This document shows positions 3,602 through 23,573 of a stretch of 64,000 bases of DNA, piece after piece. The notes below the pieces were generated by a model. That model saw only the letters and a program-made list of their open reading frames with translations. It searched no databases and was not told the DNA's origin. A program made the translations under genes and the position numbers. Location of the stretch: IMG/VR virus record IMGVR_UViG_3300035670_000062, positions 32,001 to 96,000 of that record. One strand, written 5' to 3'. Each line of letters starts with the position of its first letter. Within the stretch, counting starts at the first letter, position 1. This DNA comes from a virus.

Positions 3602-3645
3602 TTTGGTTACCTGAAAAATGGTTCGTATATTTACAGTATAAGAAA
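3602..3645 (+). promoter_or_regulatory. early-type promoter upstream of the tRNA leader
   Basis: TTTG-N20-TATATTTA followed by TATAAGAAA, same architecture as the repeated promoters. Confidence 0.65.
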
Positions 3646-3688
3646 GAAAAGATCGACTTAAAAAAGAAAACACATATTTATAATAAAA

Positions 3689-3808
3689 ATGAAAAATTGT
3701 AGCCTAAATATTAACCTTACGAATACATGGAGTCGCCCGACTAATCATGATGGGGTCTATTCATTTAGAGCGAAATCATCAGACAAAATAAAACCACCCG
3801 GTTTATAA
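3689..3808 (+). CDS. putative attenuator leader peptide (39 aa, MKNCSLNINLTNTWSRPTNHDGVYSFRAKSSDKIKPPGL)
   Basis: A-rich start context after TATTTATA; 31 distinct codons in 39; ends 27 nt before a terminator stem. Confidence 0.8.
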   Translation: MKNCSLNINLTNTWSRPTNHDGVYSFRAKSSDKIKPPGL

Positions 3809-3834
3809 ATAGAATTATATATAATAATTATATC

Positions 3835-3869
3835 AACCCGGGTTTACAAAGTTAAGCTCGGGTTTTTTT
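3835..3869 (+). terminator. intrinsic terminator (attenuator) in front of the tRNA array
   Basis: 12-bp stem AACCCGGGTTTA/TAAGCTCGGGTT with 2 GU pairs, 6-nt loop, T7 tract. Confidence 0.85.
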
Positions 3870-3875
3870 GTTTTA

Positions 3876-3949
3876 AGGCTTTTTAGTTTAATTGGTAAAA
3901 TACGATACTTGTAATATTGAGAAAATGGTTCGAATCCATTAATGGCCTC
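3876..3949 (+). tRNA. tRNA-Thr(TGT)
   Basis: Anticodon arm cgata-CTTGTAA-tattg, T loop TTCGAAT; one acceptor mismatch. Confidence 0.75.
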
Positions 3950-3957
3950 TTAAAATT

Positions 3958-3968
3958 GTTCTTTGACA
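3958..3968 (+). promoter_or_regulatory. boxA-like (rrn-type Nus antitermination) site
   Basis: GTTCTTTGACA between the first two tRNAs; resembles the GYTCTTTRAMA boxA consensus. Confidence 0.6.
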
Positions 3969-3986
3969 TATTGGAAATTAAAAAAT

Positions 3987-4069
3987 GGAAGTGATCCGGC
4001 TGGATGAGGAGCTGTTCTTGAAAAGCAGTAATGCTTATGGTATTGTGAGTTCGAGTCTCACCGCTTCCG
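3987..4069 (+). tRNA. tRNA-Ser(TGA)
   Basis: ctgtt-CTTGAAA-agcag, long variable arm, G73. Confidence 0.9.
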
Positions 4070-4075
4070 CAATAA

Positions 4076-4151
4076 CGAGTAGTAGAGGAGTCAGGTTTAT
4101 CTCGCTTGGTTTGGGACCAAGAGCACGCAGGTTCGGATCCTGCCTACTCGA
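4076..4151 (+). tRNA. tRNA-Pro(TGG)
   Basis: cttgg-TTTGGGA-ccaag; cgagtag/ctactcg acceptor. Confidence 0.92.
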
Positions 4152-4193
4152 CTAAAAATAAAATCATATAATTATGAAAAGTGACAAACAAAC

Positions 4194-4267
4194 GCTCTCG
4201 TAACTCAGTTGGATAGAGTACTAAGCTTTTAACTTAGGAGTCAATGGTTCAAATCCATTCGGGAGCA
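4194..4267 (+). tRNA. tRNA-Lys(TTT)
   Basis: ctaag-CTTTTAA-cttag. Confidence 0.92.
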
Positions 4268-4274
4268 CAAAAAT

Positions 4275-4349
4275 GGTCTATTGGTGAAGTGGCTATCATC
4301 TCTGCCTGTCACGCAGAAGTAGACGGATCGTAACCGTCATGGACCGCCA
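4275..4349 (+). tRNA. tRNA-Asp(GTC)
   Basis: tctgc-CTGTCAC-gcaga; encoded CCA. Confidence 0.9.
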
Positions 4350-4353
4350 AAAT

Positions 4354-4429
4354 ATATCCTTAGCTCAGTTGGAAGAGTAACATGTTTACATCATGAAGGT
4401 CCTAGGTTCAAGTCCTAGAGGATATACCA
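4354..4429 (+). tRNA. tRNA-Val(TAC)
   Basis: catg-TTTACAT-catg; encoded CCA. Confidence 0.88.
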
Positions 4430-4489
4430 TCACAAGTAGAGGACATTGGCCGTGTAAAGGTGCCACTACCAAGAAAGATGTCCAAATTT

Positions 4490-4570
4490 GGGAGATTATA
4501 CCGTAGAGGTAGCGGGGCAGCCTGTAAAGTTGTTACGAAAGTTCGGGTGGTTCGACTCCATCATCTCCCA
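4490..4570 (+). tRNA. tRNA-Tyr(GTA)
   Basis: gcagc-CTGTAAA-gttgt, extended variable arm. Confidence 0.88.
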
Positions 4571-4577
4571 CTTCTAA

Positions 4578-4691
4578 GGGTAAAACGCTTCCTGAACCGA
4601 TGTTGGGAGGTTATTGAAGAGTGGTTAAAGGCCATAATATATCTTTGTCGGGGATATATAGTTTTGTAAAAGCTTCAATTTAGTTTTACCC
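4578..4691 (+). ncRNA. unidentified multibranch structured RNA
   Basis: Closing stem GGGTAAAAC/GTTTTACCC; internal ATTGAAG/CTTCAAT stem and several hairpins; located inside the tRNA array. Confidence 0.55.
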
Positions 4692-4701
4692 CCGGTACTT
4701 T

Positions 4702-4773
4702 GGCTCTATGGTGAAATGGTTATCACTGCGGACTGTTAATCCGTCATTCCAAGTTCGAGTCTTGGTGGAGCCG
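4702..4773 (+). tRNA. tRNA-Asn(GTT)
   Basis: gcgga-CTGTTAA-tccgt. Confidence 0.92.
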
Positions 4774-4782
4774 CAATAAAAC

Positions 4783-4859
4783 AGACACATATACCCTCCG
4801 CCTGATACGCGGTAGAAAGGTTAATTGGTTGCATGTAGGTTCAAGTCCTACTGTGTCTA
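4783..4859 (+). tRNA. atypical tRNA-Ile(GAT) lacking a D arm at the normal position
   Basis: Perfect acceptor AGACACA/TGTGTCT, T arm GTAGG-TTCAAGT-CCTAC, anticodon ccgc-CTGATAC-gcgg, A73. Confidence 0.7.
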
Positions 4860-4864
4860 CATTT

Positions 4865-4947
4865 GGAAAATAAAATAGAGAGGATCTATAACCGCCTGCT
4901 AAGCGAGTTGTACCATCAGGTATGTGTTTCGAGTACACTGTTTTCCG
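4865..4947 (+). tRNA. tRNA-Ser(GCT)
   Basis: cgc-CTGCTAA-gcg, long variable arm, G73. Confidence 0.8.
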
Positions 4948-4949
4948 CT

Positions 4950-5025
4950 GTGTTCATAGTGTTAAGGGTTAGCACGTTTGGTTGTGGTTCAAAAAGTATG
5001 GGTTCAAATCCCATTGAACACCCCA
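4950..5025 (+). tRNA. tRNA-His(GTG)
   Basis: tttgg-TTGTGGT-tcaaa, C73, encoded CCA. Confidence 0.88.
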
Positions 5026-5028
5026 ATT

Positions 5029-5100
5029 GCGGATTAGGTTATGGTAACCAAGAGGCCTCCAAAACCTCAGGACAAGGTTCGATTCCTTGAGTCTGCGCCA
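5029..5100 (+). tRNA. tRNA-Trp(CCA)
   Basis: gagg(c)-CTCCAAA-(a)cctc; encoded CCA. Confidence 0.85.
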
Positions 5101-5105
5101 TGTAA

Positions 5106-5178
5106 GGGAGTATAGCAAAGATGGTTTATGCGCTGGACTGAAAATCCAGAGATACAGGATCGTTACCTGTTGCTCCCA
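5106..5178 (+). tRNA. tRNA-Phe(GAA)
   Basis: ctgga-CTGAAAA-tccag. Confidence 0.9.
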
Positions 5179-5190
5179 CAAAAATAAAAT

Positions 5191-5263
5191 GGGTCTGTGT
5201 CCGAGTGGTTACAGGTGACTTCCTGCAAAGTTGTTTACATAGGTTCGAATCCTATAAGACCCT
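5191..5263 (+). tRNA. tRNA-Cys(GCA)
   Basis: CTGCAAA loop, U73; two U-U mismatches in the anticodon stem. Confidence 0.75.
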
Positions 5264-5270
5264 CTAAAAT

Positions 5271-5344
5271 GCCTATATGGCGGAATTGGTAGACGCGCTT
5301 GATTTAGGATCAAGATTTTACAGGTTCGAGTCCTGTTATGGGTA
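5271..5344 (+). tRNA. tRNA-Leu(TAG), short variable region
   Basis: Leu-type D arm GGCGGAATTGGTAGACGC; cttga-TTTAGGA-tcaag. Confidence 0.88.
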
Positions 5345-5349
5345 CAAAA

Positions 5350-5422
5350 GTATTCTTAGTTCAATTGGATAGAACCTCTAACTACGGATTAGAGAATGTA
5401 TGTTCGAGTCATACAGAATACT
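5350..5422 (+). tRNA. tRNA-Arg(ACG)
   Basis: tctaa-CTACGGA-ttaga. Confidence 0.92.
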
Positions 5423-5427
5423 CAAAT

Positions 5428-5499
5428 GTCTCTATAGTTCAATGGATAGAATTTTTCTCTTCTAAAGAAAAGATGCTGGTTCGAATCCAGCTAGGGATA
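5428..5499 (+). tRNA. tRNA-Arg(TCT)
   Basis: tttct-CTTCTAA-agaaa. Confidence 0.92.
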
Positions 5500-5505
5500 C
5501 TAAAA

Positions 5506-5578
5506 GCGGGTATCGTATAATGGTTAATTACACTAGCCTTCCAAGCCTGTGATGTTGGTTCGATTCCAACTACCCGCT
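5506..5578 (+). tRNA. tRNA-Gly(TCC)
   Basis: GCGGGTA/TACCCGC acceptor, CTTCCAA loop, U73; mismatched anticodon stem. Confidence 0.8.
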
Positions 5579-5596
5579 CATATATTTATTTTAAAT

Positions 5597-5670
5597 GGGG
5601 ACGCATGTACCAAGACTGGCGAAGGATACTTGCAATATCCTTGTGGTGGATTTGATTTCCACCGTCTCCA
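5597..5670 (+). tRNA. tRNA-Ala(TGC)
   Basis: ggata-CTTGCAA-tatcc, G3:U70 pair, A73; atypical D and T loops. Confidence 0.8.
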
Positions 5671-5673
5671 CTT

Positions 5674-5850
5674 TATTTTACTGGATTGGGCCAGTTAAAA
5701 TAGTTGCTTAAGCCCAAAGCGTTATATTACATAATATAGATGCAATGCATGTAGTTTAGCAGCTTAGACACCATTCGAGTGAAAGCTGTAGGGATAGATA
5801 CCTAGTATTTTAAGAGAAGAATAGTAACTTAATCTCAAACCATCTATGCG
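5674..5850 (+). ncRNA. possible structured RNA with a 5' H-type pseudoknot
   Basis: TATTTTACTGG/CCAGTTAAAATA hairpin whose loop TTGGG matches CCCAA at 5713-5717; further stems downstream. Confidence 0.4.
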
Positions 5851-5852
5851 AA

Positions 5853-5918
5853 TTTGTTTGGCTCCTCAGGGAGCCATTCGTATCTTTATGGTATAAGAAA
5901 CAAATAAAAATAAAAGTT
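5853..5918 (+). promoter_or_regulatory. repeated early promoter, copy 3
   Basis: tttgtttggctcctcagggagccattcgtatctttatggtataagaaac. Confidence 0.8.
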
Positions 5919-21215: not shown

Positions 21216-23065
21216 TGGAAAATAAATCAATAAAATACATAAATAGAGACTTTTCAAGTTTTAAAACAAAATTAGTAGAATTTGCTAAAACATATTTTCC
21301 TAATTCATATAATGATTTCTCACCCTCTTCGCCAGGGATGATGTTTATGGAAATGTCAGCCTATGTTGGAGATGTTATGTCATTTTACTTAGATAATCAA
21401 ATCCAAGAAACATTCATACAATATGCGAGACAAGATAATAATTTATATGAATTAGCATACATGTTTGGATATAAACCAAAAATTTCAACAGCAGCTCAAA
21501 CAACAATAGACATATACCAACAAGTCCCAGCAATATTATCAGGTTCTAGTTATATACCTGATTATTCTTATGCTTTAACATTAAATGAAAATACTACATT
21601 ATCATCACCTATATCAGATAAAGTTAGTTTTTTAATAGAAGATAGATGTGATTTCAGTGTTTCAAGTTCATTTGATCCAACTGAAGTTTCTATATACCAA
21701 ATAGCAGGTAATATACCTCAATATTTTTTATTAAAAAAATCAAGAAAAGCAGTTTCAGCAAATATAAAAACTCAATCATTTATATTCAATGATTTTACAC
21801 CATTTCCAACAATATCAATAACTGATAATAAGATATTAGGAATACTTGATATAACTGATAGTGATGGAAATAAATGGTATGAAGTAGATCATTTAGGACA
21901 AGAAATGGTATTTGATAATATAAAAAATACAAATCCAAATGACCCAAATACATACACAGATATTGATGTTCCATTTTTATTAAAATTAAAGAAAATCCAA
22001 AAAAGATTCTCAACAAGAATTTTAAATAAAACAACACTCCAAATCCAGTTTGGTGCTGGTAATCCTAATTCAATTGATGAAGAAATAACTCCTAACCCAA
22101 ATAATGTAGGTTTAGGATTACCATTTAAAAAAACAAAACTTACAACAGCTTTCTCACCTGATAATTTCTTATTTACAAATACTTATGGAATTGCTCCAAC
22201 TAATACAACTCTAACAGTAAGGTATTTGTCTGGTGGTGGGGTTGAAGCTAATGTCCCCTCAAATTCTTTAACAAGAATAAATAAAAATACAATAAAATTT
22301 AATTCAATAAATTTAAACTCATCAACAGCTGACTATATATTCAATTCATTATCAACAACTAATCCTCAAGCAGCAGATGGAGGAGGATCAGGAGACTCAA
22401 TTGAAATTATAAGACAAAACACATTAATGAGTATTTCAGCTCAAAATAGATCAGTAACATCAAATGATTATTTAATTAGAGCTCTTAGTATGCCTAGTGA
22501 TTATGGTACAATTTCAAAAGCTCATATACAACAACCTCAATTAGTAGATAATCAAGTATCAACAATTGAAACATTAAATTTATTTGTTTTATCTAAAGAT
22601 AATAATGGGTATTTATCAACATCATCAAATACTTTAAAAAATAATCTAAGAACATACTTGTCTCAATATAGAATGATTGGAGATAACATTGAAATAAGAG
22701 ATGCTTTTATAATTAATATAGCAGTTGATTTTGAAATTATAGTACTTCCTAATTTTAATAATAATCAAGTAATTTTATCTTGTATAGAAGTATTAAAATC
22801 ACATTTCAATATAGATAATTGGCAAATCAATCAACCAATTTTCTTACGTGATATATATGTAAAATTAGATAGAGTAGAAGGAGTACAAACAGTAAAAAAC
22901 ATAAAAATAAGTAATAAAGCTGGAGTATCCCTTGGATACTCAGAATATGGTTATGATATTGAAGGAGCAACACAAAATCAAATAATTTACCCATCATTAG
23001 ATTCAAGTATATTTGAACTAAAATACCCAAACCAAGATATAAAAGGGAAAATATCACCATTATAA
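21215..23065 (+). CDS. baseplate wedge subunit (T4 gp6/baseplate J-like)
   Basis: DFSSFK...AYVGDVMSFYLD...A...GYKP; QNRSVTSNDY. Confidence 0.88.
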   Translation: MENKSIKYINRDFSSFKTKLVEFAKTYFPNSYNDFSPSSPGMMFMEMSAYVGDVMSFYLDNQIQETFIQYARQDNNLYELAYMFGYKPKISTAAQTTIDIYQQVPAILSGSSYIPDYSYALTLNENTTLSSPISDKVSFLIEDRCDFSVSSSFDPTEVSIYQIAGNIPQYFLLKKSRKAVSANIKTQSFIFNDFTPFPTISITDNKILGILDITDSDGNKWYEVDHLGQEMVFDNIKNTNPNDPNTYTDIDVPFLLKLKKIQKRFSTRILNKTTLQIQFGAGNPNSIDEEITPNPNNVGLGLPFKKTKLTTAFSPDNFLFTNTYGIAPTNTTLTVRYLSGGGVEANVPSNSLTRINKNTIKFNSINLNSSTADYIFNSLSTTNPQAADGGGSGDSIEIIRQNTLMSISAQNRSVTSNDYLIRALSMPSDYGTISKAHIQQPQLVDNQVSTIETLNLFVLSKDNNGYLSTSSNTLKNNLRTYLSQYRMIGDNIEIRDAFIINIAVDFEIIVLPNFNNNQVILSCIEVLKSHFNIDNWQINQPIFLRDIYVKLDRVEGVQTVKNIKISNKAGVSLGYSEYGYDIEGATQNQIIYPSLDSSIFELKYPNQDIKGKISPL

Positions 23066-23084
23066 TATATTTATAATAAAAAAT

Positions 23085-23573
23085 ATGAAAATTTTAAACG
23101 AAATAGGAAATTTAATACTACTTTTAATAGCTGTAGTTTTAGGTTCAATATTATTACCTATAGGTATTTTATGGAATGTGTATAAATCTATATTGAAATC
23201 TAAAGGTTATAAATTTTTAACAACTATTAAATTAATATTATTATATTGGTTGAGATTGTTATATCAAGTGTGGGTTGTTATTAAACAAACATTTCTATAT
23301 GTTGCTTATTTAATAGATTTATTAGGTAATGTGATATTAGGAGAATTATTAGAATCAACAATGTCTAAATCACCTCAACATCTATTTGGGAGAGGGGAAA
23401 TAACAATTTCTGCAGCTTTAGGATACTTAAAAAGAAGAAATGAATTAACATTAGTTGGGAAAATTTTATGTAAAATATTAAATAAATTAGACCCACATTA
23501 TGAAGATCATTGCATATCATCTATTGAGTTATATGAATATAAAGAATCTTTAAAAACAAAATCAAAAAAATAA
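23085..23573 (+). CDS. membrane hypothetical protein
   Basis: Hydrophobic segments; TISAALG...LNKLDP...DHC. Confidence 0.65.
   Translation: MKILNEIGNLILLLIAVVLGSILLPIGILWNVYKSILKSKGYKFLTTIKLILLYWLRLLYQVWVVIKQTFLYVAYLIDLLGNVILGELLESTMSKSPQHLFGRGEITISAALGYLKRRNELTLVGKILCKILNKLDPHYEDHCISSIELYEYKESLKTKSKK

Follow-up and report, generated by a model that had tools for sequence, protein, structure and literature searches.

Organization of the Locus

We analyzed a 64,000-nucleotide (nt) stretch of phage DNA (the window), corresponding to bases 32001-96000 of the 113,098-bp IMG/VR phage record IMGVR_UViG_3300035670_000062, in which two promoter motifs, a short open reading frame (ORF), P0001, and an intrinsic terminator lie immediately ahead of an array of 19 transfer RNA (tRNA) genes. 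The record has a completeness estimate of 69% and a G+C content of 28%, and its + strand carries nearly all of the genes. An earlier note on this DNA had proposed that the ORF is the leader of a transcription attenuator that samples the codons read by the downstream tRNAs. The features that bear on this proposal are listed below, with positions here and throughout being those of the window unless genome coordinates are specified.

3602..3633, + strand: early promoter, with TTTGG at -33 and a -7 box TATATTTA; predicted transcription start near 3638
3675..3687, + strand: gene-start or late-type promoter motif, matching TATTTATAATAAA exactly and ending 1 nt short of the ATG
3689..3808, + strand: leader ORF P0001, 39 codons, ending in Lys-Pro-Pro-Gly-Leu-stop
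3692..3787, + strand: proposed sensing zone (codons 2-33), in which the 19 codon boxes of the array are all present and the other five all absent
3796..3801, + strand: putative antiterminator 5' strand ACCCGG, inside CCA CCC GGT (Pro-Pro-Gly)
3813..3829, + strand: AU hairpin (AAUUAU/AUAAUU) at the apex of the putative antiterminator structure
3835..3876, + strand: intrinsic terminator, a 12-bp hairpin (3835-3864) running into a T7 run (to 3869), followed by GTTTTAA
3838..3843, + strand: putative antiterminator 3' strand CCGGGT, in the terminator 5' arm
3877..5671, + strand: 19 tRNA genes (15 canonical and 4 non-canonical) and two spacers, from ARAGORN and Rfam

The early promoter, 51 nt upstream of the leader ORF, is one of about 20 copies of a family (TTTGG-N15-TTCGTATCTTTA), all of which are on the + strand in the early region and have a gene start 20-45 nt downstream. 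Promoters in this phage are of the Bacteroidota type, with TTTG at -33 and a -7 box like TAnnTTTG, and the -7 box at 3602-3633 fits the Flavobacterium sigma-A consensus, which is TAnnTTTG at -12 to -5 (PMC9723704). The second motif, the 13-mer TATTTATAATAAA that ends 1 nt upstream of the leader ORF, is four-fold over-represented in the window (21 matches vs 5.2 expected). When one mismatch is allowed, 27 copies are found genome-wide, of which 25 are intergenic, and most of them stand 0-17 nt before a real ATG, chiefly those of late genes. The motif is probably a late promoter that yields very short or no 5' leaders. Both of the promoter motifs recognized in the earlier note (3602 and 3675) are members of repeated, gene-start-linked motif families that are the phage's own. 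Copies of the early promoter include those at 1226, 1698, 3602, 5857, 13856, and 59392, many of which have a GGCTCC-N4-GGAGCC palindrome between the two boxes. The family recurs in distantly related metagenome phages. Its palindromic form is present in 4 viral stretches and 21 from metagenomes; the phages concerned have G+C contents of 27-41% and share with this one only promoters and diverged genes, and little DNA otherwise. Copies of TATTTATAATAAA span positions 11690-60653 of the window and occur genome-wide, two of them (24921 and 30212) directly behind terminators.

The leader ORF is as the earlier note had described it, with 39 amino acids, 31 distinct codons, and 17 amino acids beyond the start Met, Glu, Gln, and internal Met being absent; all 17 amino acids have been used by codon 28. 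When scored with a position weight matrix of real starts, the leader ATG has a score equal to the median for real gene starts and ranks in the top 4% of all ATGs, and it obeys the gene-start pattern of the phage. A structured non-coding RNA was also considered as the main explanation for this segment and was rejected, given z-scores of -1.27 for the ORF-internal hairpin and +0.1 for 3650-3795; the value of -2.25 for 3689-3876 is mostly contributed by the terminator. Rfam leader and T-box families give only sub-threshold, chance-level matches over 3700-3884, such as L20_leader (28.9 bits against a cut-off of 58.7) and L10_leader (23 against 44).

In the array, ARAGORN finds 15 tRNAs with its default settings, and Ser-TGA and Ser-GCT emerge when these are relaxed. 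A narrow search with the Rfam tRNA model gives 32 bits for the tRNA-Ile(GAT) gene at 4783-4859, whose D arm is missing and whose anticodon arm is followed by a 20-nt insertion. Ala-TGC, at 5597-5671, is reported only in the mitochondrial mode of ARAGORN; its fold resembles a cloverleaf (z = -3.1), with UGC in the anticodon loop and a G3:U70 pair. These four non-canonical tRNAs are supported by the fact that they fill exactly the four gaps in an otherwise non-redundant set, and the 19 tRNAs counted in the earlier note are credible, though four of them are non-canonical.

Codon Boxes of the Leader and the tRNA Complement of the Phage

A second tRNA cluster is located 5.4 kb upstream, outside the window, at genome 30053-30475 (window -1947 to -1525). 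Its anticodons are CAT, CAT, TAA, TTG, and TTC, corresponding to Met, Met or Ile2 (ATA), Leu-TTR, Gln, and Glu, so that the tRNAs for Glu, Gln, and Met, which the earlier note had guessed to lie beyond the window, are found there beside Leu-TAA. Two small protein genes precede this cluster and are co-transcribed with it from an early promoter at genome 29564; neither a leader nor a terminator is present. In total, the phage has 24 tRNAs for 24 codon boxes, split 5 + 19, and the two clusters together provide one tRNA per codon box, which is a near-minimal complete set.

When the genetic code is divided into the 24 boxes defined by these 24 tRNAs, codons 2-33 of the leader contain all 19 boxes of the downstream array and zero of the five boxes that correspond to the anticodons of the second cluster. 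The correspondence between leader and array is thus stronger than the earlier note had stated, being exact at the level of boxes and extending to avoidance of those served by the other cluster. ATA (codon 34) and TTA (codon 39) are the only foreign codons in the leader. A ribosome covers the mRNA for about 13-14 nt 3' of the first base of the P-site codon, so that coverage of ACCCGG by a stalled ribosome would begin with about codon 34 in the A site. The two foreign codons therefore sit where stalling could not signal, because a ribosome at these positions would already mask ACCCGG. Tandem regulatory codons are absent, each of the 19 boxes being sampled once to a few times. The leader codons do not favor Watson-Crick pairing with the phage anticodons (about 8 of 19 by inspection), and this comparison adds no support.

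For an open 30-codon frame (codons 2-31), the analytic probability of the exact box set is 1.6e-6 with the base composition of the ORF itself, 8e-6 with that of the array, and about 1e-8 with phage codon usage. We also searched 1.6 Mb of phage DNA, consisting of the phage's own genome and all retrieved loci, in six frames; the only exact matches to be seen in the roughly 0.9 million open windows (27 or 30 codons in length) are three overlapping windows, all of which belong to this ORF. Of the 27-codon windows, 1.2% attain at least 19 boxes and, separately, 1.2% avoid the five boxes. At the level of amino acids, the match to the set of 17 has a probability of 3e-4 to 7e-4 in simulations with composition-matched random frames and is seen in 3 of 3130 natural short ORFs. 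The codon-box match is far beyond chance.

Terminator and Alternative Pairing

The terminator proposed in the earlier note at 3835-3869 is strong, its 12-bp hairpin having a predicted energy of -15.4 kcal/mol and running directly into the T7 run, and tRNA-Thr begins at 3877, 8 nt past this run. It is among the three to four strongest of about 12 strong candidates in the 113-kb record and is one of three in the + strand early region. A check for the phage's own promoter families revealed no copy between the terminator and tRNA-Thr. The array itself lacks a promoter, and its tRNAs can therefore be expressed only by transcription through the terminator.

There are two copies of the hexamer ACCCGG in 113 kb, one at 3796 and one at 3836, and the first of these is complementary to CCGGGT (3838-3843) because the terminator core is palindromic. 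Both this pairing and the inner AATTAT/ATAATT stem have the positions and complementarity claimed for them in the earlier note. The hexamer CCCGGG is also present twice in the genome, its other copy being in a long non-coding stretch at genome 14307. Folding of the nascent RNA with ribosome masks, a check that the earlier note had suggested, shows that the ACCCGG/CCGGGT pairing forms and is lost only when the end of the ORF is masked. For RNA ending at 3845, the pairing probability is 0.70-0.99 when there is no ribosome or when one is placed at codon 15 or codon 28, and zero when it is placed at the stop codon; for RNA ending at 3850, it is about 0.4-0.5 for a stall at codon 28 and 0.6-0.8 for one at codon 15. 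A GC-rich 6-mer complement falls within the 30 nt under the stop-codon ribosome in 0.4% of composition-preserving shuffles (p = 0.004) and anywhere in the ORF in 2.3% of them (p = 0.023). None of the 11 other strong terminators has such a complement within 150 nt.

The antiterminator strand that would be masked encodes Pro-Pro-Gly, which is an EF-P-dependent pausing motif. The stop codon of the leader is 26 nt before the terminator hairpin, and in experiments in E. coli, terminators recovered almost all of their efficiency at about this distance from an upstream stop codon (PMC4824070). Given this similarity in distance, a terminating ribosome should not block the hairpin itself.

In equilibrium folding with ribosome masks, the terminator has a probability of at least 0.998 in every state. 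This outcome does not count against a switch, since the validated E. coli trp attenuator gives 0.9998 in every state when treated by the same procedure, which makes the equilibrium test uninformative. The direct-path barrier for refolding from the antiterminator to the terminator is 8.1 kcal/mol vs 5.8 kcal/mol for E. coli trp, and in these tests the nascent-fold behavior and refolding barrier of the phage leader are comparable to those of the trp attenuator.

A Candidate Attenuator and Its Alternatives

The sequence elements, their statistics, and the alternative folds are directly established, and the best single explanation for them, which is unproven and to which we give slightly less than an even chance, is that a transcription attenuator of the ribosome-mediated (leader-peptide) kind controls entry into the tRNA array. 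Leader-peptide attenuation has been reported in Flavobacterium (PMC9723704). From the arrangement of these elements we infer translation of the ORF, the coupling of ribosome and polymerase, the efficiency of termination, and the regulatory outcome. Transcription would start at the early promoter (about 3638) and/or at the ATG-adjacent motif (about 3685), and ribosomes would translate the 39-codon leader. A ribosome that keeps pace to Pro-Pro-Gly-Leu-stop would cover ACCCGG, allowing the terminator to form and stopping transcription 8 nt before tRNA-Thr. Delay of the ribosome anywhere in codons 2-33 would instead leave ACCCGG to pair with CCGGGT in the terminator 5' arm, giving readthrough into the 19 tRNAs. 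The leader would report a shortage of any array-supplied tRNA because its 32 codons cover all 19 boxes and none of the other five. Such a device would place the tRNA supply under on-demand or negative-feedback control.

Our view of what the attenuator might sense is a little more tentative. It may be a pan-tRNA attenuator that samples every box of the array and deliberately avoids the boxes of the other, constitutively transcribed cluster, such that any one shortage opens the terminator and replenishes the set. In this case, the shortage could have its source in phage codon demand, host shut-off, or tRNA-cleaving defenses. The link to anticodon nucleases and counter-defense made in the earlier note is conjecture, and the observations are fitted just as well by a simpler, homeostatic reading with feedback on the supply of tRNA or the speed of translation.

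A number of observations weigh against an attenuator. The antiterminator pairing is only 6 bp long, and its state is less stable than that of the terminator by about 10 kcal/mol (-10.1 vs -20.4 kcal/mol), a caveat that the earlier note had raised; for the E. coli trp attenuator, the same procedure gives -15.6 vs -18.3 kcal/mol, so that the stability gap is smaller than in the leader. Taken together, the modeled energetics neither support nor refute attenuation. A looser test, in which the terminator arm may pair with anything upstream, is matched by 10% of shuffled upstream sequences (p = 0.1). The leader has no protector hairpin like the trp 1:2 hairpin, and an untranslated leader is therefore predicted to read through, with the OFF state needing tight transcription-translation coupling. 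No convincing pause hairpin is present either, as judged by the z-score of the ORF-internal hairpin. In addition, ACCCGG is part of an imperfect 15-nt direct repeat, ACCCGG(G)TTTAYAAA, at 3796-3809 and 3836-3850 with a spacing of 40 nt; an origin by duplication or a role in binding a protein could account for this repeat in place of selection for RNA pairing.

Other difficulties concern the leader ORF and the array. Codon usage in the ORF lies at the 0.4th percentile of real-gene windows and its G+C at third codon positions (GC3) is 0.29 vs 0.13, so that in both respects it is like spurious ORFs. A phmmer search of 1.84 billion representatives yielded no homologue of P0001, there being six weak matches that are all in proteins of 610-4371 amino acids, and tblastn against phages gave no match. 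Atypical codon usage and the lack of a homologue are expected for a regulatory leader and equally for a chance ORF. Moreover, a clearly spurious ORF at 5595-5711 has the same set of 17 amino acids, and 4 of the 19 array tRNAs are non-canonical. Finally, every statistic was chosen after the pattern had been seen, and the probability of the box match, in the range of about 1e-6 to 1e-5, has to be discounted by one to two orders of magnitude; even after this discount, the match is hard to dismiss.

Comparative evidence, which comes from family-level relatives at best, is also unfavorable. The phage has no close relative, the best match to its ligase among 5.8 billion proteins being 59% identical, and cultured phages reach at most 39% ligase identity; there is no cultured relative. 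A search of viral contigs with the single ligase protein found nothing, and an alignment-based ligase search of these contigs found 80 loci, the closest of which is 56% identical; the leader is in none of them. Exact DNA patterns for the terminator, tRNA-Thr, and the leader core have no match in viral or metagenome contigs. Among 20 tRNA clusters of family-level relatives, none has a terminator directly upstream, these clusters directly following protein genes, and the second tRNA cluster of the phage itself also lacks the leader-terminator arrangement. The attenuator put forward in the earlier note is partly supported, namely by the gene-start pattern, the strong terminator with no promoter after it, the nascent pairing, and the codon boxes; the arrangement itself is lacking in family-level relatives.

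Many of these points would also be compatible with an unregulated unit, the main rival, which we regard as rather unlikely. In this explanation, promoter, ORF (or a short non-coding RNA in its place), and terminator form an autonomous, moron-like early/late transcription unit, the terminator of which is leaky, and basal readthrough supplies stable tRNAs, the box match and the repeat being coincidental and the latter a local duplication, as a 15-nt direct repeat suggests. Codon usage and GC3 typical of spurious ORFs, the missing P0001 homologue, the same amino-acid set in the ORF at 5595-5711, the absence of the arrangement from family-level relatives and from the second cluster, and the value of p = 0.1 in the general pairing test all favor it. 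So does the anatomy of the promoter-ORF-terminator segment, which has a G+C content of 36% vs 27% in its flanks and, like a moron, possesses its own promoter, its own terminator, and a distinct composition; its promoter, though, is one of the phage's own, and nothing about function follows from the definition of a moron. Coincidence is nevertheless difficult to reconcile with a box match of such low probability that has no other instance in the 1.6 Mb of control DNA, with both foreign codons falling exactly where stalling could not signal, and with a complement placed inside the footprint of the stop-codon ribosome (p = 0.004). The placing of a strong terminator 8 nt ahead of a 1.9-kb tRNA array that otherwise has no promoter also calls for an explanation.

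Lambda Q at tR' and RNA-binding antiterminators of the BglG/LicT kind provide models for factor-dependent antitermination, which we consider improbable here. A phage or host protein would bind the direct repeats at 3796-3809 and 3836-3850, as RNA or DNA, or would modify RNA polymerase, giving a timed override of the terminator to which the ORF is incidental. The order of promoter, leader of about 200 nt, strong terminator, and genes is indeed that of lambda PR'-tR', the repeat reaches past the palindromic core required for RNA-RNA pairing, and start motifs of both the early and the late type are upstream. On the other hand, PF02357, PF06530, and PF03589 (NusG-like/Q-type) have no match in the 113-kb record, which is 69% complete and has most of its proteins unannotated, and the codon-box match is left unexplained. 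To a further explanation, in which codon sampling is functional without acting via the terminator, we assign a very low probability. The peptide or its translation might then serve as a timing or quality check dependent on the array tRNAs, or translation might affect the stability or processing of a leader-tRNA precursor, and the box statistics do show a link between ORF and array without identifying its mechanism. No downstream ORF or other target is evident, however, and both the terminator and the complement at the end of the ORF would have no explanation.

Neighboring Elements

Two further features follow the array.

5680..5745, + strand: pistol self-cleaving ribozyme (Rfam RF02679), full length, 55.8 bits vs a gathering score of 34.5
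5857..5888, + strand: next early promoter, assigned by a promoter-family match, restarting protein-gene transcription after the array

The pistol ribozyme is 8 nt past the last tRNA-like gene and about 110 nt ahead of the next early promoter, and its cleavage may separate the tRNA precursor from the RNA that follows. HDV-like (hepatitis delta virus-like) theta ribozymes adjoin phage tRNAs (PMC10879173) and would offer a parallel if the pistol ribozyme trims the array precursor in this phage. Within the array, the spacers at 4430-4489 and 4572-4701 have no gene assignment; the second of these has a multibranch fold with a closing stem of 9 bp and a weak z-score (-1.5), and relaxed ARAGORN settings place a doubtful second Asp-GTC there.

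Two relatively GC-rich stretches without a long ORF, of about 700 and 440 nt, are found outside the window at genome 13857-14570 and 16447-16890, one of which bears the TATTTATAACAAA motif followed by merely a 7-codon ORF. These stretches may be non-coding RNA genes. In a distant relative (G003; L101/L102), positions 22399-23336 contain a tRNA-Ala gene, a terminator, a promoter-like site, and a Lys-rich ORF of 48 amino acids, after which a GC-rich spacer of about 150 nt leads, with no terminator between, to tRNA-Glu, Gln, Ser, and Thr. The amino-acid content of this ORF bears no relation to the tRNAs of that locus.

Relation to Known Systems and Biological Meaning

The proposed attenuator shares with those of amino-acid operons (E. 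coli trpL, hisL, thrL, and ilvL; Bacteroid-trp, RF01692; and the Flavobacterium candidates of PMC9723704) a promoter-proximal short ORF followed by an intrinsic terminator, and the 5' arm of this terminator may, as in those attenuators, have an alternative pairing that depends on ribosome position. It differs from them in sampling each of 19 boxes with one codon or a few rather than using tandem regulatory codons, in lacking the protector (1:2) hairpin of the trp attenuator, and in the identity of the regulated genes, which are phage tRNAs and not biosynthetic; nor does it match any Rfam leader family. T-box riboswitches likewise couple the status of tRNA supply to a choice between terminator and antiterminator. 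They do so, however, by binding uncharged tRNA through a conserved Stem I and T-box, regulate aminoacyl-tRNA synthetase or amino-acid genes, and are found mostly in Firmicutes, and no Rfam T-box match is present here.

In the leader ORFs of antibiotic-resistance genes known from Term-seq, and in those of bmrCD and vmlR, stalling anywhere relieves a downstream terminator, and the signal is translation speed. The proposed phage leader would be alike in sensing stalling anywhere rather than one amino acid. Those systems respond to drugs and control resistance genes in Firmicutes, whereas here the codons match the regulated tRNAs and the setting is a Bacteroidota phage. As in lambda PR'-tR' with Q, and in morons, a short, strongly promoted transcript would end at a strong terminator before genes, and the composition is distinct from that of the flanks; both of these precedents, however, predict no relation between the codons of the ORF and the downstream genes, and the search for a Q- or NusG-like protein was negative.

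The presence of tRNA genes in phages, and the use to which they are put, have been a matter of debate for decades; codon compensation, host shut-off, and escape from tRNA-targeting defenses are among the reasons proposed (PMC10264068, PMC11464382). In our literature searches, we came across no account of a mechanism that regulates a phage tRNA array. If the attenuator proposed here is real, no regulatory logic for phage tRNA genes would have been described before it, and no earlier attenuator would have been tuned to an entire tRNA repertoire and not to one amino acid, extending the principle of attenuation from single amino acids to the whole tRNA set. The phage would then sense and correct its tRNA supply through translation itself, and the leader would constitute a compact natural sensor of translational capacity.

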